From Escherichia phage vB_Ec-G1: a stretch of 64,000 bases of DNA. The notes under the pieces were generated by a model. The model did no database searches. It was not told the origin of the DNA and was given only the letters and a program-made list of their open reading frames with translations. The stretch lies in sequence record PQ433349.1; one strand, written 5' to 3'. Below, one piece after another: positions 9,849-33,651 of this stretch (positions are counted from its first letter, which is position 1; each line of letters begins with the position of its first letter). The position numbers and the translations under genes were made by a program.

Positions 9849-11873
9849 ATGAATTTAACAAGACCTAATAGTGCGATAGCCGATCTGGTAGAAGCTACTT
9901 ATCGAAAACGTCGCAGCTTTGAGGCAGGTTTTACATTACGTAATTCCCGTGAAGTTTTGCTGTTAGCAGCAGAAGGGAATTATTACCAATGGAAAGGAAC
10001 TTTTCCTAAAGTAGTTCCAGCAAACTCTACGCCAGCCACCACAGGTGGTATTTCTTCCCTTGCATGGCAAAGTGTTGGGACCGCTGATGATATAGCAATT
10101 ATCAATGCCAAGTTTACGGCAATGCAGCAACAGATTGATGATCTGTCGGAAACAATACCTGAAGCTGGTAAATCGGCTTATCAGATCGCACTTGATAATG
10201 GTTTTGTTGGAACAGAAGCACAATGGCTTGCTTCTTTGAAAGGGGATACTGGTGCTCAACTTAATATTAAAGGATCATTAGCAAGCACTAGTGAACTACC
10301 ATCCACAGGTAACGTTGCAGGGGATGGTTATATCGTAGGTGATGTAATCTACGCTTGGGATGGTTCTGTTTGGAAACTTATTTCTTCTCTTGGGCCAGAA
10401 GGTAAATCAGCTTACGAGGTATGGTTGGCAGATGGTAATACAGGATCTGTTTATGATTTTCTTACCTCTATAAAAGGTGATAAAGGCGATGTTGGTCCTA
10501 CAGGGCCACAGGGAGCACCTGGTGTTAACGCCAACGGTTTTGATTATCGTGGGGATTTGCCTTCTACAAGTAACTTACCACAACCTAACTCTGAAAACGT
10601 AAGCCAAGCTTATTCTATCAATGGTAATCTTTATGTCTCTAATGGGACAGCTTGGGTCAACATGGGTAATATTGTTGGTCCTCAAGGTCCACAAGGTGAG
10701 GCAGGTAAAGACGGTCTAGATGGAACAGATGGGGATGAAGGGAAATCTGCATATCAAAGTTGGCTGGATGCTGGTAATGAAGGGACAGAAGTAGATTTTA
10801 TTGCCTCACTTAAAGGTCCAAAAGGAGACAAGGGTGATCAAGGAGAGCGAGGTCCACAAGGTGAACTAGGTCCACAAGGACCAGTGGGTGCAACAGGATC
10901 AGGCTTAGAGATTATCGGGGTTCTGAACAGTGAAGCTGAACTTCCTCCTACTGGAGAAGTAGGTGATGCATATAAAATTAATAATGATTTGTATGTTTGG
11001 GTTCAAGATGCTACGGAATGGATGAATGTTGGCAGTCTTGGAGGAACATCAATTACAGCTAAAGGTCATGTTCCGAACAGTGAAGCTCTCCCTGTTTATA
11101 ATAACTATGGTGATGCCTACTTAACTGAAGATACTAGTAATCTTTACATCTATACCTACGATCAAGACACCAATTCCGCATCTTTTGTTGACATGGGAAG
11201 TATTAAAGGCGACAAAGGTGAAAAAGGGGATAAAGGAGATAAGGGTGATCCTGGAACAAACGGAACCAACGGTACTAATGGGACCAACGGTAAGGACGGC
11301 GCACAGTGGTTTGTAGCAACAACTAATCCAGTCGCAGGTGATGGTGTTATCAATGATTACGCTTTCAATACTACCACTGGGGCAGTGTTTAAGAAAACAG
11401 ATTCTTCTACGTGGACACTTATAGGAACTCTTCCTAGTATACCAGAAGCCCCTCAAGATGGCTTGACGTATGGTCGTTCTGATGGAAACTGGATCGAAAT
11501 ATCAGGATCAGATCCTACGGAAGCTATAACACCAACTAGAGTTACAGCAGGTTTCATGGAACTTGAAACAACTACTGCCAACTCTGGAGCATCTTGGACT
11601 CCTTCTGGAACTTCCAATATGTATGTTGTTACAGTAACTGATGCTCTGACAGTTGGAGCATGGCCTGGTGTCACTGGCTCTACAAAACCTAAAGCGTTTT
11701 CAGCAATGATTTATTTGATTCAAGATACAACGGGACACACGGTTACACTAGATGCGTCTTATGGAGCACTAAATGATACAGAAATAGCAACTGCTGCTAA
11801 CGCAGTAACAATTTTGCAATTAACGTATCCTGGTGTGGGTGATATCGTGGACATGGTTGTTGTAACACGATAA
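9849..11873 (+). CDS. collagen-like tail fiber protein
   Basis: Several Gly-X-Y runs (GPQGPQGEAGKDGLDG, GDKGDQGERGPQGELGPQGPVG, GDKGEKGDKGDKGDPGTNGTNGTNGTNG). Confidence 0.75.
   Translation: MNLTRPNSAIADLVEATYRKRRSFEAGFTLRNSREVLLLAAEGNYYQWKGTFPKVVPANSTPATTGGISSLAWQSVGTADDIAIINAKFTAMQQQIDDLSETIPEAGKSAYQIALDNGFVGTEAQWLASLKGDTGAQLNIKGSLASTSELPSTGNVAGDGYIVGDVIYAWDGSVWKLISSLGPEGKSAYEVWLADGNTGSVYDFLTSIKGDKGDVGPTGPQGAPGVNANGFDYRGDLPSTSNLPQPNSENVSQAYSINGNLYVSNGTAWVNMGNIVGPQGPQGEAGKDGLDGTDGDEGKSAYQSWLDAGNEGTEVDFIASLKGPKGDKGDQGERGPQGELGPQGPVGATGSGLEIIGVLNSEAELPPTGEVGDAYKINNDLYVWVQDATEWMNVGSLGGTSITAKGHVPNSEALPVYNNYGDAYLTEDTSNLYIYTYDQDTNSASFVDMGSIKGDKGEKGDKGDKGDPGTNGTNGTNGTNGKDGAQWFVATTNPVAGDGVINDYAFNTTTGAVFKKTDSSTWTLIGTLPSIPEAPQDGLTYGRSDGNWIEISGSDPTEAITPTRVTAGFMELETTTANSGASWTPSGTSNMYVVTVTDALTVGAWPGVTGSTKPKAFSAMIYLIQDTTGHTVTLDASYGALNDTEIATAANAVTILQLTYPGVGDIVDMVVVTR
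11209..11297 (+). repeat. tandem 9-bp repeats encoding GDK/GTN collagen triplets
   Basis: gataaagga-type and ggaaccaac-type units repeated 3-4 times within the fiber gene. Confidence 0.6.
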
Positions 11874-17206: not shown

Positions 17207-17254
17207 ATCTCCTCCTATAAAGGGGCAGAAGCCCCTTATAAAACAATGAGTTAA

Positions 17255-20200
17255 CTAGTGACAGGACGCCCAGGAGTTACCCACATCATATCCGGCAGTA
17301 AGCTGAACATTAAGATTGTAAAATTCTCCAGCCTTAGTAACAGCTAAAGCAGCAAGTTCACCTGCCCGACTATAGGCTGTAAACCATCCACCTTTGGGAG
17401 ATTCATGAATGTTAGCCCAAATTTGCCCTGTCTCTTTTTCCTTATTATGCTTCCATTCTTCAACTTTAGCAAGGCATTCTTTATCAATTTTCTTTTGTTC
17501 TTCAGGATCGTCTACTTTCTTCCAACCTAATGATTCAGGTGAAAACCATTTAAATTCTACAAGGTTACGAGAAACTTCAAGCTGGGCTTCATCGTGATAT
17601 GCAATCATTTGTTGCACGAAGTCTTTATTCTTCCAGTCATCTTTAAAGAAGTCAACACTTAGCCCTTCTTCTTCGATCATGTCGTCATAAATAACCATTG
17701 CACGTTTAGCACAGATAACCCCACCACTTTGGAACAGAGAGTTAAGAATCGCGTGAGCAGAACGAGTAGGAACCTTACGACCGTCAATACCCAAAACATA
17801 CTGTTTACCAGTCTTAACCCAGAAATCGTTTAAACGTTCTTTAAGACGCGCCAGTGGGAATGCAGCTTCCCAGAAAGCATCGAACACCAACTGACCTGTA
17901 AACTTATCGCTACCAATTGTTTTAGCAACCTTGTCGGCTTGTGCACCATAAGTAATACCATACTTAACAGATTTAGCAGGACTACGTTCAAATTTACGTC
18001 CAATAGTTTCAGTGATACGTTTTGCCATCATTGTGTGAACATCATTAGGTTTCTCTAACAACAGAGCGTTACAATATTCATGTGGCTCCGGCTCGTACCG
18101 CCAACAGTTTCCTGTGATGGTAATGCAGTCTTTCTGACGCATGACCCACGTACCAAGTTCTGTTTGTGGACACCAAACATCCTCTACACCCCACTCTTCA
18201 ATAGTCAAACTTTGAACAGGAATGTGAGAGCGGTTAGCCAATGTTACCACTTTTACTTTCTGCTCTTTTGTATTGAAAGCTACAGAGATATTGCCTCCAT
18301 GCACCAGGTACGAGGCAGTTAAAGCTGCTTCAAAAAGTTCACCTGGGTTCTGCGCCCAACGCCAAACAGGTTTTTGTTTATGTTCATGCCAGTAACCATC
18401 TGCAATCAAGAAACCTTCCAAGAAAGCTACACGCTCGGCATGAGACATATTAACTACACGCTCTACCCACGGAACATCCCATTTACCTTGTTGAACAGAA
18501 GTTAAACTATTTACCTGATCTTGTTCCATGTTAAATGGAGCATTACAAATAATATTATCTCCTGTGCAAAGCTCGGCAGTTGTTCTGACTTTAGGCACAT
18601 AAGTATTCCCTTTACTACGGGTATTAACATACCAACGGTGATCTGCTGTTGCACGGTAAGTGTGTGATTTCCCTTTAATCTCAAACGTCTTACTATTTTT
18701 ATAGAAGACCTTACCTTTTACTTTAGTCCATTCTTTCAGACCTGTTTCAGCATTGTACCCTAAAATCTCATCCCCTTCCTTCAGGTCGTGATATCCTACC
18801 CAACCTTTACGAGTCAAAGCTTGAGCATCCATCGGCACACAGTAGTGTGACTCAATCTTTGCTTCCAAAGAGTCGAAGTCATAACCGATCTGGAAGTATT
18901 TAGGAACTTCTACACCAAACAAGTTACGCATCTCCCATCCAAACAAAGATGTGACACGAGGAATATTAGCTACAGATCTATGTTTCATACGAGAGGTTGC
19001 AGCATCACATGTAGCGGCTGGGGTAGGAATACGCCCATCTGCCCTTACTGCGGCTAAGAAACCTTTATCGTATTCTTGATCTTCTTCATCTTCTTCCCAA
19101 TCAGCACCGCCACCTAAAATAGAGTTCCTACGATGCTTATACGTTAAGTATTCTACAATCTGTGTAGCATAGGGAAATTTCTCACCCAAAGCTTGCAAAT
19201 TGGGACAGATTTCTTTTTCCTGACCTTTGGTAAAACATGGGTTAGTCAATACTTTAAGACCGCGACCTTTACCTTTTGCTATACGCTCTTGAATCTTCCT
19301 TTCCAAGGTTTCCGGTGTGCACTCCAGATGATCACAACGGTCCTGACAAAAATTAGAAGATAAAGTTTGCTCAACGTAAGCTCGAATACCTTTCTGAAGT
19401 TCTTCCTCACTCTTTTTAATCTTGGTGCCAGATTTAAGAGTCAAATCTTTATCTTTATATTCTGATGGTACCCAACCTAATCCTACAAGCCAGTTTTTAA
19501 TATGGGTTGTATCGTTCAATGTTGCAGGGATGTTAGGATCACACAGAGGCTCATCTGCTGCAACTGGCAGTTTCCACTCTTTCCCCAACATAACTAACCA
19601 CCAATCGCCATCCCTCTCTTCCAAATGACCATCATGTTTCTTAGCAAAATTGATCATATGGTTAGTTGGTTCTAGGTTCTTTTTAATTTGCAATTTAGGC
19701 GGAATAAAAGCTTTAAGATAACCTTTTGTTGCTGGTTTAGGTGGCAAAATAGGCTCAACGAGTAAACGAAGACGCTCCATTTCTGCATCCAAAAAAGCAA
19801 GGTTCTCTTCTGCTTGTTTCATGTTAAAAGCAAACCCACGGTGTTCCTGGCGTGTAATAATGTCTGCTACACGTTGTTCAAGTTCAAATGGACCTTCCCA
19901 TTTATCATAATCACCCCATTCTTCCATAAGGTAATTATATACGCTCGTATTGGCTTTGTTGTCATAGATACAGTAATAAAGCATATCCGCAGCAAAAGTC
20001 TTAAATCGATCTTCTTCTGGAATCTCTTTACGGAAATCTATTTTTACATCACCACCTGCTTTTCGAGAAAGTGCTGCCAAGCTATGTCCTGATTTGCCCT
20101 CAATCTTTCGATCTGGGTTTAACACTTTACTCAAAATCAAGGAGTCAATAAGTTTTACCTTATTTTTGCCCCACGTATTATATTTAACACTGTAATCTAA

Positions 20201-20587
20201 TCCATAAAACAGTTTTGTAGCCAACCAGTCGTAGTTGATACCGTTGTGAGCCACAGCCATTTCAACCAGATATTCAGGCTTGTCTTTAAAATAACCTTCA
20301 TGATTAATAAAATCTGGGAAATCTTTTAGTTGAAAATGCGTGTAATCTTGCGCCACATACTCTTTAAGAACATATGTGTATTTACCATCTGACTCTTCAT
20401 AAGGACGCCCATCAAAGATGTATTTAGGGCCATCGTGGAAAGCTACTATTTCTCCTGTTTCATGGTTCTCTAAGACAATACAGTGCATTTGAAATGTGTC
20501 TTTGAGACGATAAGGACTAGCTAAATAATCAATAGTGTCATTATTCAACAATCCGTTTGCTTCAATATCCCATGTAAACTTACTCAC
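17255..20587 (-). CDS. DNA polymerase A (Pol I family) interrupted by an intein
   Basis: Motif A-like DFDSLEAKIESHY, motif B-like KSVKYGITYGA, motif C YHDE; about 245-aa insert after motif A. Confidence 0.85.
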   Translation of the reverse strand: MSKFTWDIEANGLLNNDTIDYLASPYRLKDTFQMHCIVLENHETGEIVAFHDGPKYIFDGRPYEESDGKYTYVLKEYVAQDYTHFQLKDFPDFINHEGYFKDKPEYLVEMAVAHNGINYDWLATKLFYGLDYSVKYNTWGKNKVKLIDSLILSKVLNPDRKIEGKSGHSLAALSRKAGGDVKIDFRKEIPEEDRFKTFAADMLYYCIYDNKANTSVYNYLMEEWGDYDKWEGPFELEQRVADIITRQEHRGFAFNMKQAEENLAFLDAEMERLRLLVEPILPPKPATKGYLKAFIPPKLQIKKNLEPTNHMINFAKKHDGHLEERDGDWWLVMLGKEWKLPVAADEPLCDPNIPATLNDTTHIKNWLVGLGWVPSEYKDKDLTLKSGTKIKKSEEELQKGIRAYVEQTLSSNFCQDRCDHLECTPETLERKIQERIAKGKGRGLKVLTNPCFTKGQEKEICPNLQALGEKFPYATQIVEYLTYKHRRNSILGGGADWEEDEEDQEYDKGFLAAVRADGRIPTPAATCDAATSRMKHRSVANIPRVTSLFGWEMRNLFGVEVPKYFQIGYDFDSLEAKIESHYCVPMDAQALTRKGWVGYHDLKEGDEILGYNAETGLKEWTKVKGKVFYKNSKTFEIKGKSHTYRATADHRWYVNTRSKGNTYVPKVRTTAELCTGDNIICNAPFNMEQDQVNSLTSVQQGKWDVPWVERVVNMSHAERVAFLEGFLIADGYWHEHKQKPVWRWAQNPGELFEAALTASYLVHGGNISVAFNTKEQKVKVVTLANRSHIPVQSLTIEEWGVEDVWCPQTELGTWVMRQKDCITITGNCWRYEPEPHEYCNALLLEKPNDVHTMMAKRITETIGRKFERSPAKSVKYGITYGAQADKVAKTIGSDKFTGQLVFDAFWEAAFPLARLKERLNDFWVKTGKQYVLGIDGRKVPTRSAHAILNSLFQSGGVICAKRAMVIYDDMIEEEGLSVDFFKDDWKNKDFVQQMIAYHDEAQLEVSRNLVEFKWFSPESLGWKKVDDPEEQKKIDKECLAKVEEWKHNKEKETGQIWANIHESPKGGWFTAYSRAGELAALAVTKAGEFYNLNVQLTAGYDVGNSWASCH
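18107..18841 (-). mobile_element. intein with LAGLIDADG homing-endonuclease domain inside PolA
   Basis: Insert begins with Cys (CVPMDAQ), contains VAFLEGFLIADGY, ends ...ITGN followed by Cys; junction codons checked against nucleotides. Confidence 0.6.
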
Positions 20588-21381
20588 TATTCCTCCTTTC
20601 TAATGTTCTCCAGAACCCACTGAAGTTCTTTTAAACTTAAACTTCTTACTCCCGCAGTTTTACTAGCTTCAGCTTTAAGTAACGGGTAAGCCTCAATGAT
20701 ACGCGTTTTAAGATCAGAAGTCAAGGCTTTTAAAAAATAGGTAGATGCTTCAGATAAAGAATCTTCTTCTGATAACACTTTACCTGCACTTGCTCCCGCT
20801 CTCCTAACGGCTATATCGTAGTCTTTACTGTTACCTAATACGAATAGTCGATTCTCTCCTAAAACAACGGGAGAACGCTTCTCGTTGCGTTTAATCCATA
20901 TCTGGAATACACAAGGAACATCCCAAGGTTCTCCATGAAGAATAAAAGATCCTTTTGGACATTCTTCTTCGTAAAGAAGATGCATGTGGGGATTTAGTTT
21001 GTGTGCAAAAAAGATTTTTTGAAATGTGCGAGGCAAGATAAAACAAATACCACCTTCGTTATCCAACATTTCAGCACAATGGTTAAAGAACTTAATGGCA
21101 AGACTAGCATTTTTTCCAAACGGAGGATTACCGACAAAAGCAGTTACACTACCAACAGACTCAACAGATTGAGCTAAAAAATCTGCCTCAATACAATCTT
21201 CAAACTTAGGGTCAATATCAAAAGAAGTTATGTTTTTAAAACAAGAAGAGAAAGCTCCTTCTCCCGCAGATGGTTCTACGTAGTTAGCTTCCTCTCCAAA
21301 AATTTCTTTGATCTTATCACATAAGAACCCCGCATAAGCGGGGTTAGTGTAATATTGATCAAGTGTGTTCAACTTGCTCAA
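20587..21381 (-). CDS. DNA N6-adenine methyltransferase (gamma-class amino-MTase)
   Basis: SAM motif VEPSAGEGAF and catalytic NPPF (VGNPPFGK). Confidence 0.75.
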   Translation of the reverse strand: MSKLNTLDQYYTNPAYAGFLCDKIKEIFGEEANYVEPSAGEGAFSSCFKNITSFDIDPKFEDCIEADFLAQSVESVGSVTAFVGNPPFGKNASLAIKFFNHCAEMLDNEGGICFILPRTFQKIFFAHKLNPHMHLLYEEECPKGSFILHGEPWDVPCVFQIWIKRNEKRSPVVLGENRLFVLGNSKDYDIAVRRAGASAGKVLSEEDSLSEASTYFLKALTSDLKTRIIEAYPLLKAEASKTAGVRSLSLKELQWVLENIRKEE

Positions 21382-21914: not shown

Positions 21915-23693
21915 TTAATAGTTGCTATCCGTAGGCAAATTAGCAGGATTGTTGAAATACTGCTCTTTGTCATGCAGAGTTGCAGTTCTAATATCATAGT
22001 AAAACTGCCCTGCTGGACCAGTTTCCGAGAACTCACGGTTTTTTAGGATAAAGCAATGAGTCGTATTGCGTTCTACAGGGTCTTCAGCGGCTTTATCTCG
22101 TTCCAAAGCCAAGGTAATACCAGCACCTTTAGCCAAGAAACTACTACCCATTGCATCGTCCTCTGTTAAGTGTTCATTGCCACCATTAGCCGATTTCTTA
22201 ACGTGTGAGATGACGATAATAGTTATAGCATACTCTTTCATGATGCGCTTCAACCATGTTGCTAACTCTTCCTGGGCTTGAACATCCATACCAGAAAGCA
22301 AATCAGAATAAGGGTCGATAACAAGAATTGTTACTCCAAAATAGATGATCATCTCCAAAACTTTTTCTTTGATAGACTCCACATCTGCTCCACGATCATC
22401 ACACACATAAAAACGTGGTGATCCATCTTCTCTTTCGTAAAAATCTAGGATTTTTTCTTTATTCTCTTCCAAGATTTGAAATTTCTCTTCCGGTGTTTTC
22501 CTGTGTAGAGGAATATGCAGGAACGAGGACAACAGGTTACGAGAATATTTCTTATAAGTTGCTTCCAAGGACAGAATACCTAGGGTATGTTCTGGGTGCG
22601 CAACAATAATATGTTTGGTGATCTCGTTCACCATCAAAGTTTTACCGATACTGGTCTTTGCCAGGATGACTGTAATCTCTTCCTCTACTAAACCACCACC
22701 CAGCATATTTGCAGCAACACGCATAAAAGGAGGCAAGGTAATCATCTTGGATTCCAAGCATTCTAATGCAGCTTCATACAAGACATTAGAAGCATAAACA
22801 CCTGCTGGGGTGTATAGACGAGCACTCCAAAAAGCTTTTACGAAATCTTTTGCACGACCTTCTTCCAGATACTGATTGGCATCCTTAAGATCCATCTGCA
22901 TACGGTAGACTTTGTTACGAGGCAGCACCTTAACAATATTTTCAAATGCCTCATTACCTGCTTTGTCATTATCCATGCAAACAATAATCTTCTTAAATTT
23001 TTCAAAGAAAGGGTATTGTGCCTGAACTTGTTTATACATACTGGTTTCACCAGTTGTGCCACTAACTACTGCTGGAAGTTCATATTTGTTGTCCAAGTTT
23101 TCAGACAGCATTTGATAAGCTGCCAGAGCATCGTGTTCACCACCTGTAATTACCACAGTATGAGAACGGTCTGCAAAACGGATTTGTCCAAAAAGATCTA
23201 CATCTTTACCTACTTGACCAATAGGTTTACTGAAATCTTTAGGATGAATACGACGCTTAAAACCAACCAATTCTTTACCGATAGTAGTTGGATATAAACA
23301 ACTTTCTACTACCATCTGATCCCCTTCCTGACGGTATTCATAACGAACACCATAGAAAGATGAAACTTTTTCTTTAATGCCTCGATAACCACGTGGGTTG
23401 GTTGATGTTTCTTGAACAATTTTACGATGAATCTGTTTATTAAATTCCGAACCCACAATCTCCTCCTCTTCTTCTAAAACTTCACCATTTTCTCGTAACC
23501 ATTCTACGCTAGGAATAGTGTATTCACACGCAAAGCACTTAGCACCTTTATGCTCTCCATTAGAATCTAATCCATAAACCATCAGGTTATTACGAGAGCG
23601 ATCCTTGCCATTTTTCATGCAGCGCGGACAACCTGTATGCCCTTCCTTGCTAAGATCAACATCAAATCCATATTTAGTTATAATGTGCGACAC
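21915..23693 (-). CDS. primase-helicase (zinc-finger/TOPRIM primase fused to DnaB-like helicase)
   Basis: N-terminal CPRC...CFAC zinc finger, TOPRIM-like acidic motifs, Walker A AKTSIGKT. Confidence 0.8.
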   Translation of the reverse strand: MSHIITKYGFDVDLSKEGHTGCPRCMKNGKDRSRNNLMVYGLDSNGEHKGAKCFACEYTIPSVEWLRENGEVLEEEEEIVGSEFNKQIHRKIVQETSTNPRGYRGIKEKVSSFYGVRYEYRQEGDQMVVESCLYPTTIGKELVGFKRRIHPKDFSKPIGQVGKDVDLFGQIRFADRSHTVVITGGEHDALAAYQMLSENLDNKYELPAVVSGTTGETSMYKQVQAQYPFFEKFKKIIVCMDNDKAGNEAFENIVKVLPRNKVYRMQMDLKDANQYLEEGRAKDFVKAFWSARLYTPAGVYASNVLYEAALECLESKMITLPPFMRVAANMLGGGLVEEEITVILAKTSIGKTLMVNEITKHIIVAHPEHTLGILSLEATYKKYSRNLLSSFLHIPLHRKTPEEKFQILEENKEKILDFYEREDGSPRFYVCDDRGADVESIKEKVLEMIIYFGVTILVIDPYSDLLSGMDVQAQEELATWLKRIMKEYAITIIVISHVKKSANGGNEHLTEDDAMGSSFLAKGAGITLALERDKAAEDPVERNTTHCFILKNREFSETGPAGQFYYDIRTATLHDKEQYFNNPANLPTDSNY

Positions 23694-23705: not shown

Positions 23706-23984
23706 TTAAAATGGTTCGTTAGTCTCCATCATATATTCTGCTTCTAGTTCTTCCATGTGCTTTCTAAATTGGAAAGCAATTTCTGCTACAGTTACATTTA
23801 AATCTTTTTCAAAAACTTCTGTAGAGCCTTCATAAAAACGAATACCGTCAATTAAAAGCCCTCCGTGGTAATCCCAATCACTTTCACGAGAAAGCGGGTT
23901 AGGCTCTTCATAATAGTAATCCACCTCCACGACTAAGGCTTTCCCGTTACGAGTGGTGTATTCAAAATCAAAAGTGTTAATCAT
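23706..23984 (-). CDS. hypothetical protein
   Basis: Track ORF 92 aa. Confidence 0.45.
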   Translation of the reverse strand: MINTFDFEYTTRNGKALVVEVDYYYEEPNPLSRESDWDYHGGLLIDGIRFYEGSTEVFEKDLNVTVAEIAFQFRKHMEELEAEYMMETNEPF

Positions 23985-24928
23985 TATAGCTCCTCAAATA
24001 AAAGTCTACGACGCTCATTCAACACATCAATGTGATAATGAGTCCTGACATACTTAGCTAATGCTAATCCTTTCTCCATGCAAACATCGGGAGCACTTAA
24101 TAAGTATTCCGTAATATCTTTCCACTCGGAAGGTGTTTCAGCAAAGAATAACAGATCTTTAAACTCTTGTGTATGATAATTCTCACGAGGAGAACAGATC
24201 AAAGGTAAACCCTTAGCACCTGCCTCAAGAATTTTAAGATTGCTTTTTGCATTATTAAACACGTTATCAATCAATGGCGCAAGACTGATTTGATGACCAT
24301 CGTAAGATTCCATGTAGTTGGCATATGGTCTTACACCTTCATAAACACAAGTTGGTGCTACATTTTCCCTGATTACAGACCATTCACGACTACTTAAAAC
24401 TTCAGAATCCCTACGAAAACCACATATTGTAAGATCTTTACCAAAATCGGGCAAGATAGCCAAATCTTGTTTATGTGTTTCACTTCCAGCCCAGACTAAT
24501 GGAGTTTTGGAGTAGCGATCACGGGTCAACACAAATTGACCTTCATCGTAAGGAAGTCCATTAGGGATTATGTGCACATTATCATTGTATTGTGAAAGTT
24601 CAACTTGCAAGGCAGGTGTCGTAGTTGTAACAAGGTCACTGTGCTCTAAAAACCATTTTAAATGTTCACGAATACCTGATTCAAAAATACCTTCTAACAT
24701 GTGTCCTTTTGGAATAACTAAAGAGTCATCCAAATCCATAACCATTTTAAAGCCTAGGTTTTTAAGGGCTAAAAAGCCCTCTTTACCTTTTGTTGGCACC
24801 CCGTTAAAAACGAAAACGTTGTGTTTAGGTTGTGAAGAGAACTGCCTTGAGTAAGGCAGCACTACCCTATGGAAATCGCAGACACTATAATTGATTCCGT
24901 TACGATTGTCAAGAATTATTTGTCCCAT
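23984..24928 (-). CDS. glycosyltransferase (GT-B-like), paralog 1
   Basis: C-terminal KILEAGAKGLPLI resembles GT1/GT4 EAMAxGxPVI motif; paralogous to next gene. Confidence 0.5.
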   Translation of the reverse strand: MGQIILDNRNGINYSVCDFHRVVLPYSRQFSSQPKHNVFVFNGVPTKGKEGFLALKNLGFKMVMDLDDSLVIPKGHMLEGIFESGIREHLKWFLEHSDLVTTTTPALQVELSQYNDNVHIIPNGLPYDEGQFVLTRDRYSKTPLVWAGSETHKQDLAILPDFGKDLTICGFRRDSEVLSSREWSVIRENVAPTCVYEGVRPYANYMESYDGHQISLAPLIDNVFNNAKSNLKILEAGAKGLPLICSPRENYHTQEFKDLLFFAETPSEWKDITEYLLSAPDVCMEKGLALAKYVRTHYHIDVLNERRRLLFEEL

Positions 24929-24935
24929 ACATCAC

Positions 24936-25883
24936 CTACAAACTTTCAATAACCTGGCGTCGCAATTCGTTTGCATCTGCCAGATTGTAGTGTGTTCGAA
25001 CATGTTCAGCCAAGAACAAGCCACGATCTTCCCGATAGTTTGGATTGCGAAGAAGCTTAACAATTTCGTAATGCCATTCTGCTTTATTCTCTGCGTAAGC
25101 AACAGCACGAGCATCTACAGGGTTAAAATAAGGTAACACCTTAGAACAAACAATCGGAATACCTTTTGCCCCAGCTTCCAGGATTTTGAGATTACTTTTG
25201 CAATTATTAAAATCATTATCTACCAAAGGAGCTATAGCAATAGCATGACTTTCGTAAACATTCATGTAATTATCTAAATCTTTTACAGCAGCTTTATATT
25301 TGGCATTTGGTAAATTTCTGCGAATCTTAATCCACTCTTGTCCCGTGATGCTCTGCGATGCTTCATATCCCGCAATAGTAAGAAGTTCATCATCGAAAGT
25401 ATTAGAGACTAGTCGTAAATCGGGTTCGTGACTAGCACCGCCAGCCCATACAACAGGGGTACCGGATGAACGATCATTTGACAAAGTGAATTGTCCACTA
25501 TCAAAAGGAAGTGCATTTCGGATCACAACAACATTCCTATTTAAGTGACGGATCTTATATGCCAAGTATTCCGTAGTCACAATAACCACATCAGCAAGCT
25601 TAACCATAGCCACAATAGCATGAGTGTTTGACTCGTATAAACTTGCCAAATAATGCTCTGGATTAAGTTGGTAAAAATCATCTAAGTCTACAACAATCTT
25701 AACACCTTGGCGTTTCAAAGATAAAACGTATTCTGCACCTTTAGAGTGGATACGGTTAAACACAACAACATCTTTCTTAGGTTGAATATTATTGTTGTTA
25801 AATGGTATAACAATACGATGATAGTCACAACCGCTGTGAGGTTTTGCATCAATTTTTAGTTTAGACCATTTTTTATTTGACAT
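24936..25883 (-). CDS. glycosyltransferase (GT-B-like), paralog 2
   Basis: Shares CD(F/Y)HR(V/I)V(L/I)P N-terminus and KILEAGAKGIPIV motif with 23984..24928. Confidence 0.5.
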   Translation of the reverse strand: MSNKKWSKLKIDAKPHSGCDYHRIVIPFNNNNIQPKKDVVVFNRIHSKGAEYVLSLKRQGVKIVVDLDDFYQLNPEHYLASLYESNTHAIVAMVKLADVVIVTTEYLAYKIRHLNRNVVVIRNALPFDSGQFTLSNDRSSGTPVVWAGGASHEPDLRLVSNTFDDELLTIAGYEASQSITGQEWIKIRRNLPNAKYKAAVKDLDNYMNVYESHAIAIAPLVDNDFNNCKSNLKILEAGAKGIPIVCSKVLPYFNPVDARAVAYAENKAEWHYEIVKLLRNPNYREDRGLFLAEHVRTHYNLADANELRRQVIESL

Positions 25884-26556
25884 GTGCTAGTGCCTCCTCA
25901 TAAGAAAGTCGGATTTTCCCATTTTTAATATCCTCTAAAGATGCTTTGTATTCTTCCCAGTTAATACCAATAGCAGCTTCTTTCTCTTCTTTTGTCAGAT
26001 TAGCAAAAGGCATAGGATTGTTTCCAAAAACATCGTCTGGGTGGATATAAGCCATGATACGAAGTGGACAAGGTGTTGCCTGAATACCATGATTCAAACC
26101 AGCAGCTTTCAAACGGTGTCCCCATTCAGCATCTTCAAAACCATAACCGTGAGTGTAAGGGCGGAAATAACCCATCTTCTCAACAACGGCACGAGAATAC
26201 ATTGCAAATTGACACATTGCAAGTTCCCAGAGAATAACTTCTCCTTTGCTTCCAACAACTTTATCTTTGAAATACTCCGGCATACCAAAGAAATCCCATC
26301 CTCCAGAAACAGCCTGATCTACAAAGTATGTTTCCCATCCTTCCATGACTGGGTAGCAATCATCGTCAAAAATAAACCAATAATCATAACCTTCTTCATA
26401 AAACTGGTGCATAAGTTCATTCCTGGCATAAGCTACACCTTTACGATCTGGATCGTTGAATACTCGAAAATCTGCACGTGGATCTGTTACAAGGTAGTCT
26501 TTAAGTGGACGGACGCCTACAGTGATAACACCCACTCCGATTTTAATATTTTCCAT
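25873..26556 (-). CDS. putative glycosyltransferase (GT-A-like, tentative)
   Basis: 227 aa with acidic DDD motif (WFIFDDDCYP); tentative. Confidence 0.35.
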   Translation of the reverse strand: MENIKIGVGVITVGVRPLKDYLVTDPRADFRVFNDPDRKGVAYARNELMHQFYEEGYDYWFIFDDDCYPVMEGWETYFVDQAVSGGWDFFGMPEYFKDKVVGSKGEVILWELAMCQFAMYSRAVVEKMGYFRPYTHGYGFEDAEWGHRLKAAGLNHGIQATPCPLRIMAYIHPDDVFGNNPMPFANLTKEEKEAAIGINWEEYKASLEDIKNGKIRLSYEEALAHVK

Positions 26557-26564
26557 TATCTCTC

Positions 26565-27128
26565 CTAAATAGTTTTACTGTGATCGTGACAGTGTAATAA
26601 ATGATGTATAGACCGTTGAGGATTTGTTTGACCTAATCTGTAAATGTGAAACAGATACATTCCCCGCATCAATCCTAACCTCTTTCCTTTTTCATGTAAA
26701 GTGCGAGAGAAAATTAAGTCGAATTGGATAGATTTTTCTTCGAAAGGAATTTCATTCCACAACGATTTTCTAAAAAGCAAAAAGAAACCTGCCAGAGGTG
26801 TTCCGAAAGGAACTTCTTCAACACTCACTTTATGATATTCTCTTGCAATCTTAGCATATTCTATATGGTTTAGAATATCTGGATCATCGTTAATTTGGTT
26901 AGAGAAAAGCTGATAACCACTACCTAACCTGTTACAAGTTGCACCTATTACATCAAAAGGTGGGTTTGAAATAACAAGCTCTTCAAGCATAGATGGTTGA
27001 TCAGGCAGGAGGAACATTGTATCGGTATCTCTTAAGCACACCCAACTATCATCTGGAAGAACGGCAATAGCTTCATTGATAGCCTTGCCGATATTTCCTG
27101 TCAGATAGGGAGTAATATAATAAATCAT
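26565..27128 (-). CDS. hypothetical protein, possible nucleotide-sugar transferase
   Basis: 187 aa; CLRDTDTMF DxD-like motif; tentative. Confidence 0.35.
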   Translation of the reverse strand: MIYYITPYLTGNIGKAINEAIAVLPDDSWVCLRDTDTMFLLPDQPSMLEELVISNPPFDVIGATCNRLGSGYQLFSNQINDDPDILNHIEYAKIAREYHKVSVEEVPFGTPLAGFFLLFRKSLWNEIPFEEKSIQFDLIFSRTLHEKGKRLGLMRGMYLFHIYRLGQTNPQRSIHHLLHCHDHSKTI

Positions 27129-28450: not shown

Positions 28451-29053
28451 TTATGGACATTCATACCATTCTTTTTTACCACCGAAGGCCATCACCACAT
28501 CACAAATATCCAGACCAGCTTTGCCTACACCATATGCTTTCAGCTTCCATTCCCCATCTTCACGAACCAAGGAAGCCACGTGGCAGATTGTGTTGCCAGC
28601 TACTTCAGGAGCCAGGAAGTCAAAATCCAGAATTTCCACATTGCGCTCGGAGTCGAAGATTTTAAGCATACCTTCAGAAGCATGACCAAAACGTTTCAGA
28701 CCTGTATCATCATCAATGGTCAGAACAAAGGCAATCTCTTGTGCATCAGGGGAGATTTTAGCCAGAGTAATATCAATCTGCTCCATGCTGCCAGTTCCAT
28801 CACGAACATCGTCACCAGCGAAGGTAGAACGTTCAGGATCAAACTTGTTAGCATAGCAAACCAGATGACGTGCAGACAGCATTTCAGGATTGCCAGCGGC
28901 ATTGTGACGACAAACCAGTGCACTTACATCCAGATCCAGTTTAGAATCAGATTTCCAAGAGAATTCCAGGCGCAGTTCTTTCAGAGCCGGAGCAACTTTC
29001 TTCAGGGAAATTTTTTCGCTAGAGCCTTTTTTCAGGGAAATTTTATCAGTCAT
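28451..29053 (-). CDS. terD: TerD-domain protein
   Basis: 200 aa; N-terminal KISLKK strand and GDDVRDGTG...IAFVLTIDDD core typical of TerD family. Confidence 0.75.
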   Translation of the reverse strand: MTDKISLKKGSSEKISLKKVAPALKELRLEFSWKSDSKLDLDVSALVCRHNAAGNPEMLSARHLVCYANKFDPERSTFAGDDVRDGTGSMEQIDITLAKISPDAQEIAFVLTIDDDTGLKRFGHASEGMLKIFDSERNVEILDFDFLAPEVAGNTICHVASLVREDGEWKLKAYGVGKAGLDICDVVMAFGGKKEWYECP

Positions 29054-29068: not shown

Positions 29069-29338
29069 TTATTTAAGTGTAATACCAGTTACAGTCAATT
29101 CTACTTCCAAAAGCTTAGATGTGTTTTGGATTGATACTAATTGTGCATGATGGTTTAGTTCTACAGCAGAATAATCATTTTCCCCATCGTCTACTTTTAA
29201 ATAAACAATGATTTCACTAAGGTCTAAACCATTTTCGTCAAATGCATTTTCATAGACGAAAGTATCTCCTACATCCAAATCTTTAATGGTAAGGCATCGT
29301 TTATTTACTTTTTGCTCATCAATTTCGAAGTTTAACAC
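29069..29338 (-). CDS. hypothetical protein, paralog of 30360..30638
   Basis: Shares DLDVGDTF...EVELTVTGITLK with the paralog. Confidence 0.45.
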   Translation of the reverse strand: MLNFEIDEQKVNKRCLTIKDLDVGDTFVYENAFDENGLDLSEIIVYLKVDDGENDYSAVELNHHAQLVSIQNTSKLLEVELTVTGITLK

Positions 29339-29567
29339 TTCTTCCTCCTAATGTTATCTCCGGTTTGTATATACGAAGAATTATAGCGTTTTCATTTTCT
29401 TTGTCAACCCATTCTTCATAATCAGGCCATACATGAATCTCTACTCTACTTACAATATCTTCCATTCGCACAGTCCCAATGAAATACTCTTTGAGACTGC
29501 GCATAATGAAAGCTTCTCTCTCACGCCAATAATTTTCTATGACTTGAGAGGCAAGCTCGTCGATCAT
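29319..29567 (-). CDS. hypothetical protein
   Basis: Track ORF 82 aa. Confidence 0.4.
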   Translation of the reverse strand: MIDELASQVIENYWREREAFIMRSLKEYFIGTVRMEDIVSRVEIHVWPDYEEWVDKENENAIILRIYKPEITLGGRSVKLRN

Positions 29568-30358
29568 TTTTTAGCACCTACTTTAACAACCCACTCTCCG
29601 AACTCTTCAGATAAGAGTTTGTCATAAAGCTCTGAATCTGTCAAGTCTAAATCTTTAATACCAATAAAACCAACATTATCATAAGCATTTGCCAGTTCTT
29701 TCAGGAAGCCAAACTTCTCATTACCAACGCCAACCATGAACCAATAAATAGGTTTATTCTTATTCTCTTCGATAAGACGACGAACAGCACTAGGATCACC
29801 ATTCTCACCATCCGTCTGGAAGAATACAACACCAGGGGTAACGTCAGCACCTGGTTCAGATACAGCTACAACTTTTTCACGCTCTACAGACACTGTTTCA
29901 GTTTTACCAAGCAGACGATTAAAGAAGCCTTTCTTTGGAGCCTCCTCTTGTACCACTTGTTTAGTGGTAATATATTTAGTAACAGTGCCAAAATACTCAT
30001 CGTAGATATCCGCCATTACAGGGGCGTAATTTGTTCCACCTCCGATACGAACATTACGCATACATTTACCAACATAGTCATCGTAAACATCTGCTGTTGC
30101 TGGAGTAAGCTCTTGGGAACTCGTATTGAAGGCCCACATATCAATTTGTTGATTATCGTCGAACAGCATACCAAAAGGAAGCAGTTTACCTACAAAATCA
30201 CTCACTACCCCACTAGAATATAGACCATGCATACTACCAGAAATATCTAGAGCACATGCTACACGAAGAACAATCTTACCTTCATTCAGGTTCTTATTCT
30301 TTTTCAGAGAGAAAGCAAGGTTTTCTTGACGTTTTTTCAGGCTGATTTTCTCGGACAT
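29564..30358 (-). CDS. vWA-domain protein (TerY-like)
   Basis: MIDAS motif DISGSM, GGGTN, TDGENGD; TerD-like KISLKK N-terminus. Confidence 0.7.
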   Translation of the reverse strand: MSEKISLKKRQENLAFSLKKNKNLNEGKIVLRVACALDISGSMHGLYSSGVVSDFVGKLLPFGMLFDDNQQIDMWAFNTSSQELTPATADVYDDYVGKCMRNVRIGGGTNYAPVMADIYDEYFGTVTKYITTKQVVQEEAPKKGFFNRLLGKTETVSVEREKVVAVSEPGADVTPGVVFFQTDGENGDPSAVRRLIEENKNKPIYWFMVGVGNEKFGFLKELANAYDNVGFIGIKDLDLTDSELYDKLLSEEFGEWVVKVGAKK

Positions 30359-31758: not shown

Positions 31759-31955
31759 TACTCCTCCTCCTCATTGAAGTCAATATCTGCAAGGAGTTCG
31801 AATTTACGGAAGTTACGACAACCTTCATAAATATAACAATCACGACAAACTGCTAGAACACTTGGGGGATATATGCCTCCCATCGGTGCGAATCGTTTTT
31901 CGTCATCATAACGGACACCAATGTCTTCATCAATTATATAGATACGGATTCTCAT
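31758..31955 (-). CDS. small Cys-rich protein
   Basis: Track ORF 65 aa; CRDCYIYEGC; acidic C-terminus. Confidence 0.4.
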   Translation of the reverse strand: MRIRIYIIDEDIGVRYDDEKRFAPMGGIYPPSVLAVCRDCYIYEGCRNFRKFELLADIDFNEEEE

Positions 31956-33064
31956 TTACCAAGCCCTCGTTTCACAGCAGCTACCATCCCGTCTTCCAGA
32001 GATTGAACTTCATTAATATAATCAACACGAGCAGCACGGGCTTCCGTATTGATGCGGTTAGTTTCTTCCAACATCTTAACCAAGTTTTCCTGATCGTGAC
32101 GCAGAGTTTCAATATCCAACACTTGACGGTTAGCCAGTGCTGCTGCTTCGATCTGATTCTGTGTAGCAAGATCGCTACCCAGTTTAATTGCCAGGTTAAA
32201 TTCATCAAGAACGTTATTCTGCGTCTCTGCTGCTTTCATTTGACGTAAGCTCTCGATATACATTGAGAAGTTAGCAGAGTAAGCAGGAATAACATTATTT
32301 ACTATGTTACGCGCAGATCGCATTAAGCTTGCAGAAACTTTTTGCATACCTTGTACACGCGGTCCCATTTGGACACACAGTAGGCGCAATGCTTTTAAAT
32401 CTGCAATACGAATCTCCAGAAGATCCAAAGTATCTCGGATCACTTGTCGCTGTTCTACTGCATCTTCTGGAAGAGCAGCCAAAGCTTGTTCTTCTTTTTC
32501 ATAGGTTGCTGTTAGAAGCTGCATATCTCGGTTCAAACTTGCAGCATATTGTCCAATAGCTTGATGTAGCTTTTCAAGATATACCAAGGAATCTTCTTCT
32601 TTGCGAATATCCATTTGAAGGTTCTTTACCAACTCTTCAATACGGTTATTAACATTATCAAACTCCCCAAACAGGTCTTCTTTCATACCCATAACTTTTT
32701 TAATGAGTTTAGTAATACCCTTGCTTTGTTTAATAGAGTTTGGATCAAGTTGTTTTGCCTGTTTAATCAAAGCTGTGAGTCGTTCACTCATCTGATCGCC
32801 TTGATTACTACGTTGATGTTTTAATACCTCGGCATTCAAGGAACGCAAGGTTGTTCCTGCCTCTGCCCCAATCTCTTCGATCTCTTGTCGGGTCATAGAA
32901 GGCAAAACTGGAACTTCTTGCGGTGCCGCTGGTGCATAAACAGGACTGGCATCTAACACGCTTGGAGCGAATACAGATTTACTTGCATCTGTTGTTGCAG
33001 CAAATACGCTCATTTCAGGCTTCTTCTGACCACCAGTAACTGCTTTTAAAAATGGACTTGTCAT
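31952..33064 (-). CDS. telA: TelA-like toxic-anion-resistance protein
   Basis: 370 aa, mostly helical/coiled; size and Ter context consistent with TelA/KlaA family (from memory). Confidence 0.55.
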   Translation of the reverse strand: MTSPFLKAVTGGQKKPEMSVFAATTDASKSVFAPSVLDASPVYAPAAPQEVPVLPSMTRQEIEEIGAEAGTTLRSLNAEVLKHQRSNQGDQMSERLTALIKQAKQLDPNSIKQSKGITKLIKKVMGMKEDLFGEFDNVNNRIEELVKNLQMDIRKEEDSLVYLEKLHQAIGQYAASLNRDMQLLTATYEKEEQALAALPEDAVEQRQVIRDTLDLLEIRIADLKALRLLCVQMGPRVQGMQKVSASLMRSARNIVNNVIPAYSANFSMYIESLRQMKAAETQNNVLDEFNLAIKLGSDLATQNQIEAAALANRQVLDIETLRHDQENLVKMLEETNRINTEARAARVDYINEVQSLEDGMVAAVKRGLGK

Positions 33065-33651
33065 TCTTCATTCTCCTCTTCTGCATCTCTTATATATGGT
33101 GAAACACCGTACTCTTTAGCTACTTTAACCCAATCGTCCCATTTATACAACCATAATTTTCCTTCGGTCCCTTCTTTATCTGATTTCAACCACATATTAG
33201 GTTGCTTACCTGGGTACATGCGATTAGGTTTACGATTATAACCTCTAACACATCTTGTCGCAAACCTATCTACCAGAACAAGAACATATTTATATTCGTG
33301 GTTCAACGGCTCTTTGGAAGTGGCTTTAGGATTAGCCCCTAATTCTGCTGCCAGTTTTTGCCAATGAGCACCGTGCCTACTAAACTTACCCATACAACCA
33401 TCAATAGCATGAGCAATTTCGTGCTTCATTGTATCCACGATCATATCTCTTGTAGAGTTCTTATGCAAGTGCCAATTTACAACAACAATTTTATCTCGGT
33501 AGTTGCACCAACCGAAAGAGTTATTCACTTTGTTTCTAACACAAGCTTTATATCCTGCTTCACGTAACATGTTGTAGTAAACAGGAAAATCTTCTTTTAT
33601 TTCCTGCATCACTTCCCACCACAAGAGTTGCAAGTCTCTCTCGGTATACAT
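33061..33651 (-). CDS. SprT-like zinc metallopeptidase domain protein
   Basis: HEIAHAIDGCMGKFSRHGAHW (HExxH ... HGxxW). Confidence 0.55.
   Translation of the reverse strand: MYTERDLQLLWWEVMQEIKEDFPVYYNMLREAGYKACVRNKVNNSFGWCNYRDKIVVVNWHLHKNSTRDMIVDTMKHEIAHAIDGCMGKFSRHGAHWQKLAAELGANPKATSKEPLNHEYKYVLVLVDRFATRCVRGYNRKPNRMYPGKQPNMWLKSDKEGTEGKLWLYKWDDWVKVAKEYGVSPYIRDAEEENEE

Follow-up and report, generated by a model that had tools for sequence, protein, structure and literature searches.

A block of four glycosyltransferase genes in phage vB_Ec-G1

The 64,000-nucleotide (nt) stretch of Escherichia phage vB_Ec-G1 analyzed here (PQ433349.1; referred to below as the window) carries a block of four glycosyltransferase (GT) genes, GTA4, GTA3, GTB2, and GTB1, which follow one another in this order and are continued by an open reading frame (ORF) of 92 amino acids (aa) (Table 1). 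The original prediction, made from the sequence alone, had placed four glycosyltransferase-like genes at 23984-27128, and ORFs were found at exactly these coordinates, all on the minus strand. From GTA4 through GTA3, GTB2, and GTB1 to the 92-aa ORF, the gene junctions measure 8, -11, 7, and -1 nt, the GTB2 start overlapping the GTA3 stop by 11 nt. Because the genes are so closely joined, including the 1-nt overlap between GTB1 and the 92-aa ORF, the four GT genes and this ORF likely form one translationally coupled unit, with the 92-aa ORF as its last gene. From its position, the 92-aa ORF would also belong to the functional unit, and a small ORF occupies the equivalent site, flanked by the GT-B and primase-helicase genes, in the related phages Bas60 and KP13-16. 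No hydrophobic or transmembrane segment was predicted in the four GT proteins (maximum 19-residue hydropathy ≤1.65), all of which are predicted to be soluble. The block had been described as lying downstream of the primase-helicase, methyltransferase, and polymerase genes; because all genes here are on the minus strand, it is transcriptionally upstream of them. It adjoins a Ter-type stress module, which lies upstream on the coding strand, as much as it adjoins the replication genes.

Table 1. Features of the window referred to in the text
Feature	Position	Strand	Description
GTA4	26565-27128	minus	187 aa; minimal GT-A glycosyltransferase; first gene of the block
GTA3	25873-26556	minus	227 aa; GT2-like GT-A glycosyltransferase
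GTB2	24936-25883	minus	315 aa; GT4-like GT-B glycosyltransferase; conserved copy of the GT-B pair
GTB1	23984-24928	minus	314 aa; diverged tandem paralog of GTB2
92-aa ORF	23706-23984	minus	No assigned function; phrog_4240 at E 6e-33; 1-nt overlap of its start with the GTB1 stop
Primase-helicase	21915-23693	minus	Replication neighbor, downstream of the GT block
Amino-methyltransferase	20587-21381	minus	264 aa; NPPF amino-methyltransferase motif
DNA polymerase	17255-20587	minus	Family A, 1,110 aa
TerD	28451-29053	minus	Ter-type module
vWA	29564-30358	minus	Ter-type module
TelA-like	31952-33064	minus	Ter-type module
SprT-like	33061-33651	minus	Ter-type module
Sigma-70 consensus	29407-29380	minus	TTGACA, 16 nt, TATAAT (12/12); inside ORF 29319-29567
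Tail fiber	9849-11873	plus	674 aa; four collagen-like GXY runs

Enzyme families, catalytic motifs, and folds

GTB1 and GTB2 form a tandem pair of GT-B paralogs, as had been proposed, sharing 41% identity over 303 residues (E 1e-77), and the motifs by which the pair was first recognized, CDFHR/CDYHR toward the N terminus and KILEAGAKGLP/KILEAGAKGIP toward the C terminus, are present in the two proteins. Across 44 homologs, residues C19, H22, R23, K233, and E236 are invariant, and the longer stretch K233-x-L-E236-A-G-x-K-G-x-P is invariant or nearly so; as we read the sequence, the EX7E motif would be only partly canonical, its first acidic residue being replaced (C228). The DxD-type motifs ascribed to the two smaller genes are also real and invariant in GTA3 and GTA4, the former carrying F63-D64-D65-D66 together with Y138-G139-x-E141-D142 and the latter D34-x-D36, which does not vary in 22 homologs.

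All four proteins match PHROG glycosyltransferase families with E-values of 1e-78 to 1e-148, including phrog_7162 for GTB2 (E 1e-148), phrog_14179 for GTA4 (E 3e-112), and phrog_2456 for GTA3 (E 3e-78). Pfam support is weak for GTB1, which reaches 25.2 bits against Glyco_trans_1_2 (cut-off, 25), for GTB2, with weak matches to Glyco_trans_1_4 and Glyco_trans_1_2, and for GTA3, with sub-threshold matches to TAGT (residues 32-68), Glycos_transf_2 (residues 29-70), and Glyco_transf_7C (residues 119-155); GTA4 has no Pfam match, and none of the four GTs matched an NCBIfam family. Both GTB1 and GTB2 hit the CgeB spore-surface maturation family of Pfam (PF13524). The AlphaFold2 model of GTA4 (predicted local distance difference test score (pLDDT) of 91.7) shows a GT-A fold, and a Foldseek search of the Protein Data Bank (PDB) with this model returned GT-A enzymes only, namely LH3, AvpGT, LARGE1, COLGALT1, GalNAc-T2, and SpsA, with E-values of about 5e-4 and template modeling (TM) scores of about 0.5. 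The model of GTB2 (pLDDT 94.5) shows a GT4-like GT-B fold, its top PDB neighbors being BshA, PglA, GlgM, MshA, sucrose-phosphate synthase, TarM, and SdgB (E of about 1e-10). Sequence searches against the PDB with single proteins and profiles of GTB2, GTA3, and GTA4 gave nothing meaningful. GTA4 and GTA3 fit the DxD class of GT-A enzymes, GTA3 by its motifs and weak Pfam matches, and GTB2, judged by its model, fits the GT4-like class of GT-B enzymes.

Phage relatives and the dTDP-rhamnose pathway

The window belongs to the genus Phapecoctavirus (phAPEC8-like phages), 64 genomes of which share 98% identity with the region containing the block, and the RefSeq annotation of the block already reads glycosyltransferase four times over. 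The sister genus Justusliebigvirus (phi92-like) encodes 1:1 orthologs of all four GTs with 66-77% identity, directly before the primase-helicase gene; for example, the GTB1 ortholog of Bas60 is 77% identical. Klebsiella phage KP13-16, also a member of the subfamily, carries GTA4, GTA3, and a single GT-B gene, and the GT-B duplication is therefore lineage-specific. Phapecoctavirus and phi92-like phages rank among the most often isolated coliphages with a broad host range, and they are candidates for therapeutic use. All of them retain the four GTs and the full pathway to dTDP (deoxythymidine diphosphate)-rhamnose. This pathway is complete in phage EF1-1, whose RmlA, RmlB, RmlC, and RmlD each score above the NCBIfam equivalog cut-offs for dTDP-L-rhamnose synthesis, with the rml genes about 75 kb from the GT block and outside the window. 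The numbers of RmlC and GT-B records match (64/64 at ≥95% identity and 65/66 at 60-80%, about 130 records in total), and, judged from counts alone, they apparently come from the same genomes; no Vequintavirus name occurs among the matches listed for either search.

A role for these genes has been considered before. Olsen et al. (2020) suggested that such phages might rhamnosylate hydroxymethylated nucleotides by way of the dTDP-rhamnose pathway, and Maffei et al. (2021) remarked on a "putative dTDP glycosylation machinery"; our literature search found no functional test of these genes. The GT nature of the genes, through annotation, and the idea of DNA glycosylation, in print, were already known. 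Our analyses add three points. The DNA hypermodification reading is without the components that would define it and is at odds with restriction data for phages bearing the orthologs; the block represents a lineage-expanded form of a mobile cassette that is very widespread in phages; and glycosylation of the particle or of surface proteins is the better working hypothesis.

A mobile cassette across phages and bacteria

Relatives of the GT-B proteins occur on at least 581 viral contigs, while 185,579 species genomes yielded only 20 loci, most of which are prophages. The GT-B family is overwhelmingly phage-borne, and the GTA3-GTB core constitutes a module mobile among phages, so widely distributed that one experiment would annotate a large uncharacterized phage gene family. 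Gene context was analyzed at 98 loci with flanks of 8-10 kb. A GTA3-like gene stands immediately 5' of the GT-B gene at 48 of these, a GTA4-like gene is present at 18, and both are found at 13; a terminase, portal, or capsid gene was identified within the flanks at 51 loci or more, and 12 are of the Stephanstirmvirinae type with an adjoining primase-helicase gene. The homologs outside this type are nearly all nearer to GTB2 than to GTB1.

The cassette usually sits beside packaging and head genes. Pseudomonas prophages, for example, show the order holin, GTA3, GTB, small terminase, large terminase, and portal, and an Enterobacter prophage has endolysin, GTA4, an NAD-epimerase/dehydratase, GTA3, GTB, HNH, and terminase. 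A Paraburkholderia prophage carries capsid, portal, a collagen-repeat protein, GTA4, GTB, and a tail tube protein with Big_1/PKD (Ig-like) domains, and Chitinophaga prophages encode an acetyltransferase, a GT2, and GTB next to the portal gene, which in one case follows directly downstream, or next to terminase. A distant GT-B homolog is found in Streptomyces phage Zuko between a sugar epimerase and the terminase and portal genes. We interpret the cassette as a mobile, cytoplasmic, multi-step glycosylation module that is usually expressed with particle genes, in which lineage-specific accessory enzymes (epimerase, acetyltransferase, Rml) may tailor the donor sugars. Two candidates that emerged from these comparisons were discarded: an apparently extended GT-B protein of 504 aa at one locus (L020) is an ORF-calling artifact in GC-rich DNA and not a fusion, and a recurrent 171-aa neighbor (36 loci), considered as a hidden GTA4, is instead a helix-turn-helix/sigma-r4-like protein.

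Burkholderia dolosa and two Trinickia species carry chromosomal GT-B homologs of 41-45% identity behind an intimin/invasin-type inverse-autotransporter adhesin, in an island consisting of the IAT_beta/Big_1/Invasin_D3 adhesin, a 555-571-aa protein of unknown function, and the GT-B gene, in otherwise housekeeping surroundings. TibC/TibA, Aah/AIDA-I, and HMW1C/HMW1 are adhesin-specific cytoplasmic protein glycosylation systems in which the GT gene lies beside the adhesin gene, and the Burkholderia/Trinickia island shares with them a soluble GT gene immediately next to a large adhesin gene; it is probably an adhesin-glycosylation locus. TibC, Aah, and HMW1C, on the other hand, belong to other GT families (heptosyltransferases and GT41), and the association of GT-B with an adhesin is a genomic one within one bacterial lineage. 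In this island (L010, L013, L019, L021, and L022), three more genes of unknown function lie on the opposite strand. More distant chromosomal homologs occur in glycan-type clusters, accompanied by a methyltransferase and a large GT4 in Luteibacter and by a GT90 in Edaphocola. A phage-like contig of an Acetivibrio metagenome-assembled genome (L026, 10019-13691) encodes a GT-B homolog followed by a GT1 and then a GT9/TibC-like heptosyltransferase gene, and this multi-GT cluster adjoins RNR, RecA, and HNH genes.

Virion or surface proteins as the proposed acceptor

The interpretation that we favor, with a rough probability of 0.35, is that the GTs of the block glycosylate virion or surface proteins in the cytoplasm, probably with phage-made dTDP-rhamnose. 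Four soluble cytoplasmic GTs expressed from one operon would jointly build a short glycan in up to four transfers, the GTA3-GTB pair representing an ancient core, GTA4 a frequent third member, and GTB1 a lineage-specific duplicate. The acceptor would most likely be protein, that is, structural or surface proteins of the particle modified in the cytoplasm before or during assembly, and the donor would come at least in part from the RmlABCD dTDP-L-rhamnose pathway that every member of the subfamily appears to encode elsewhere in its genome. A glycan coat of this kind might alter the surface properties of the particle or its recognition by the immune system. Acceptor, donor, and role are what we infer from the genomic data, and a protein acceptor is favored because of the placement of the cassette within structural modules, the adhesin-linked homologs, the CgeB-family signal, and precedents of the Che8 and giant virus type. 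The fallback offered by the original prediction, namely virion proteins or envelope glycans, fits the comparative genomics better than DNA does. We also consider, as a tentative generalization, that the cassette at large may be a widespread, mobile virion-glycosylation module, which in phAPEC8- and phi92-like phages would coat particle proteins using phage-made dTDP-rhamnose.

Precedents for such a system exist in other viruses. Actinobacteriophage Che8 is described as glycosylating its capsid with phage-encoded GTs (Freeman 2023, as cited in PMC11256854 and PMC13313380), and giant viruses (chloroviruses and mimiviruses) encode sugar pathways and GTs for virion fibrils or particle proteins (PMC10117803). 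In these cases, virus-encoded cytoplasmic GTs, sometimes with their own sugar-nucleotide synthesis, decorate particle proteins. The distant GT-B homolog next to terminase in Zuko is a further point of resemblance; a glycoprotein has, however, been shown for no phage of a Gram-negative host that bears the cassette, and no acceptor motif was found here. If particle proteins are the target, phage virion glycosylation would extend from actinobacteriophages to phages of Gram-negative bacteria, with a bearing on antibody recognition, pharmacokinetics, particle immunogenicity, clearance, and adsorption. To our knowledge, it would be the earliest virion-glycosylation system recognized in phages of Gram-negative bacteria.

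Several observations weigh against this interpretation. No glycoprotein has been demonstrated in the phages of the subfamily, and no acceptor was identified here; Ser/Thr-rich acceptor tails, sought in a crude scan of the window and EF1-1 proteins as 30-residue stretches with at least 16 Ser/Thr, were not found. In this phage, the block is grouped with replication and Ter genes in a leftward early/middle unit and not with structural genes, and 37 of the 98 loci analyzed remained unclassified by context. The adhesin association is confined to one lineage, the Burkholderiaceae, and the link to the donor consists of co-occurrence with rml genes located some 75 kb away. Moreover, Pyle et al. report terminase, ParB-methyltransferase, and epimerase neighborhoods for DNA-glycosylation clusters (bioRxiv 10.1101/2023.12.21.572611), and because these are similar to the neighborhoods found here, the context evidence is not specific to a protein acceptor. 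A link to collagen-like acceptors, drawn from the collagen-GT matches of GTA4, the collagen-repeat neighbor in Paraburkholderia, and the GXY repeats of the tail fiber, was rejected as anecdotal (2 of 98 loci). Among the collagen-like runs of the tail fiber is GTNGTNGTNGTNG, and the run GDKGEKGDKGDKGDPGTNGTNGTNGTNGKDG contains repeated N-G-T sequons; the fiber protein is a speculative candidate for a glycan acceptor.

DNA as a possible acceptor

The original prediction had read the arrangement as DNA sugar hypermodification. On this reading, the GTs would move rhamnose or other sugars onto a modified DNA base, in what would need to be a sparse or sequence-specific pattern, and we regard it as unlikely. 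The enzymology behind the proposal held up, but genome-wide modification did not, given the lack of an enzyme producing a hydroxylated base and the restriction sensitivity of phages with orthologous GTs.

In its gross architecture, the block resembles validated DNA-glycosylation systems. The T4 alpha/beta-GT, RB69/DLP3 arabinosyl-5-hydroxycytosine, and RL38J1 hexosyl-5-hydroxycytosine (5hoC) systems (PMC13326640) likewise comprise several GTs, including tandem GT-B paralogs, and those of RB69, DLP3, and RL38J1 also share GT4-like folds, a site in the replication module, and a sugar-nucleotide pathway encoded in the same phage genome. The RB69 arabinosylation cluster, for example, lies between gp41 helicase/uvsX and gp43 polymerase, just as the GT block here lies within the replication module. 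The structural neighbors of GTB2 are also those of the DLP3, RB69, and RL38J1 DNA GTs (BshA 3mbo, MshA 3c4q, sucrose-phosphate synthase 6kih, 7qsg, and BH4 glucosyltransferase; PMC13326640). An argument against a DNA acceptor from the GT4-like fold was dropped for this reason, and because validated DNA arabinosyltransferases and GTB2 share PDB neighbors, the fold evidence is neutral. The same holds for the multiple GTs, the sugar-nucleotide pathway, and the location in the replication module, which do not discriminate between acceptors, and the charge of the proteins, taken as an indicator of DNA binding, was uninformative, as the RB69 arabinosyltransferases are acidic too.

At the level of sequence profiles, on the other hand, no relationship to the RB69 enzymes was found. 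In the comparison with T4 and arabinosyltransferase enzymes that the original prediction had proposed, the T4 alpha- and beta-GTs are absent from the top 50 matches of GTB2 in both the PDB and BFVD, and the PDB neighbors shared with the arabinosyltransferases are not accompanied by similarity between profiles, the GT-B profile reaching an hhalign probability of 1.1% against RB69p003 and 0.35% against RB69p047. None of the four GTs matched the Pfam families of T4 glucosyltransferases at E-values up to 1. GTA3 shares an R...DDD...ED region with the DNA GTs associated with TET enzymes (sub-threshold Pfam TAGT and phrog_842), but its score against TAGT (PF20691) is 19.3 bits, below the cut-off of 27.5, over 37 residues. 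The clusters to which such GTs belong combine a methyltransferase, a 5mYOX (TET) enzyme, and GT-A and GT-B enzymes building mono- to trisaccharides, and they have terminase, ParB-methyltransferase, and epimerase genes as neighbors (Pyle et al., bioRxiv 10.1101/2023.12.21.572611). The present cassette is alike in these neighbors, with a ParB-N6/N4 methyltransferase 2.4 kb away in 9 related loci, yet no C5-methyltransferase or TET/JBP gene was detected beside it in the contexts examined, a check that is not exhaustive for unannotated small ORFs. Pyle et al. rate GT contigs lacking a 5mYOX or ThyS neighbor as unlikely DNA modifiers.

The defining components of a DNA-glycosylation pathway were also not found in the window or in the EF1-1 annotation. 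Known phage DNA glycosylation needs a base bearing a hydroxyl group, which is supplied either before replication by a ThyA homolog making 5-hydroxymethylcytosine (5hmC), 5-hydroxymethyluracil (5hmU), or 5hoC, or after replication by a C5-methyltransferase and a TET-like dioxygenase (PMC13326640; bioRxiv 10.1101/2023.12.21.572611). The absence of a hydroxymethylase from the window, noted in the original prediction, agrees with the annotation of EF1-1, which is 98% identical over the region, and the possibility that one is encoded elsewhere in the genome found no support in the whole EF1-1 annotation. No ThyA homolog at all was found in the window or in EF1-1, and hence none with the D169N signature of the 5-hydroxydeoxycytidine monophosphate (5hodCMP) synthase (PMC13326640); TET/JBP and C5-methyltransferase genes were likewise not found in the window or the EF1-1 genome annotation. 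The neighboring 264-aa methyltransferase carries an amino-methyltransferase motif, not one of the C5 type, and the EF1-1 proteins annotated as DNA methyltransferases show no C5-methyltransferase domain. Unlike the T4- and RB69-type systems, the block has no ThyA-type 5hoC or 5hmC synthase, and we recognized no set of dCTPase and dNMP-kinase genes within it. Cassette-bearing temperate phages point the same way, with no base-hydroxylating enzyme among the Pfam-annotated genes within 10 kb of the cassette in four prophage/viral contexts.

The sole thymidylate synthase of the genus is of the ThyX type (Pfam Thy1, 35 bits; TIGR02170, weak). A hidden hydroxymethylase activity of this gene was considered and rejected: 1,034 phage records contain a member of its family, among them those of rV5-like, ICP1, and N4-like phages and many Pseudomonas phages, and most of these records lack the cassette, and because it is widespread in such phages, ThyX is not part of the GT pathway. 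The ThyX-like protein of EF1-1 is divergent, measures 332 aa, and adjoins an NT5C-like deoxynucleotidase (L005, 44381-45997, outside the window).

The phi92-like BASEL phages Bas60, Bas61, and Bas62, which have orthologs of all four GTs, give no plaques in the presence of EcoRI, EcoRV, or EcoPI; EcoKI and EcoCFT_II have only a mild effect, and the phages were described as "exceptionally susceptible" to restriction-modification (Maffei et al. 2021). RB69 and DLP3 DNA, in contrast, is highly restriction-resistant. Because Bas60-62 are fully restricted by EcoRI, EcoRV, and EcoPI, base replacement of the T4 or RB69 kind is ruled out in the sister genus and, by orthology, is unlikely in vB_Ec-G1. 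Sparse DNA glycosylation by a chemistry independent of a ThyA- or TET-made hydroxyl group seems to us most improbable. Were DNA nevertheless the target, the modification would be made without any known hydroxylating enzyme.

Host envelope and small molecules as possible acceptors

GT2-like and GT4-like enzymes together with RmlABCD are the standard make-up of O-antigen and lipopolysaccharide (LPS) gene clusters, and the block shares this composition. It also resembles prophage serotype conversion systems (GtrABC, TarP) in combining a GT2-like and GT4-like set with a dTDP-rhamnose supply in a phage genome. Accordingly composed, the GTs and phage-made dTDP-rhamnose might, at the inner face of the membrane, add sugars to undecaprenyl-linked intermediates of enterobacterial common antigen (ECA) or O-antigen or to the LPS core. 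The phage would thereby mask its own receptor, with superinfection exclusion as a consequence and progeny being spared adsorption to debris; for a lytic phage, such masking would be a novel strategy. It is consistent with this that the BFVD neighbors of GTB2 include phage proteins named RfaG, that the distant homologs of Luteibacter and Edaphocola lie in glycan-type clusters, that the block is part of an early/middle unit downstream of a perfect sigma-70 consensus, and that phi92-like relatives absolutely need ECA, forming no plaques on a wecB mutant, as well as the LPS outer core. We nonetheless consider an envelope acceptor rather unlikely. No flippase, polymerase, ligase, or Gtr-type membrane component was found, the GtrABC-type set of a membrane flippase, bactoprenol GT, and serotype GT is absent, and the four proteins have no membrane segment. 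In temperate phages, moreover, the cassettes are co-directional within late or structural operons and not in lysogenic-conversion positions; remodeling of the envelope would come too late, and lysogens would not express the genes.

The position of the block relative to the Ter module raises a further possibility, namely glycosylation of a small molecule, such as a nucleoside-like metabolite predicted for that module (phosphoribosyltransferase (PRTase), HAD phosphatases, TerD, and TelA), or of a host protein acting in takeover or anti-defense. The block lies directly downstream of, and in the same direction as, the TerD/vWA/TelA/SprT and PRTase, HAD, and phosphatase genes, and the GT4 neighbors BshA, MshA, and BH4 glucosyltransferase as well as the GT-A neighbor AvpGT act on small molecules. 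However, hundreds of phages carry the cassette with no Ter genes nearby, its late-operon placement in temperate phages is ill-suited to early host takeover, and no specific candidate acceptor emerges, so that we hold this explanation to be quite improbable.

Neighboring genes and transcription signals

The Ter-type module matches a system predicted by Anantharaman et al. (2012) to make a nucleoside-like metabolite, in the account given of it in PMC11162368, where the Ter genes of phi92 are also remarked on. Beyond the SprT-like gene, further upstream, lie a phosphatase gene, a PRTase gene, and two hydrolase (HAD-like) genes. A scan for promoters and terminators gave no clear unit boundaries; the sigma-70 consensus within the module, which might serve the unit as an early promoter, is oriented toward the genes for TerD, the lysin, the GTs, and the primase.

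Several of the EF1-1 entries labeled DNA methyltransferase have no Pfam methyltransferase domain, and the deposited annotation calls for caution; one of them (L006, 17925-18404) is an XkdF-like serine protease and probably serves as the prohead protease. On the replication side, the polymerase ORF contains an intein, and its Bas60 ortholog is annotated as an "intein-containing DNA polymerase precursor" in which the intein is mapped. In EF1-1, a gene for an HNH endonuclease (L001, 12939-13529) lies just upstream of the polymerase gene; the window is without it (blastn alignment break at about 17218-17234), a presence/absence polymorphism of a homing-type endonuclease.

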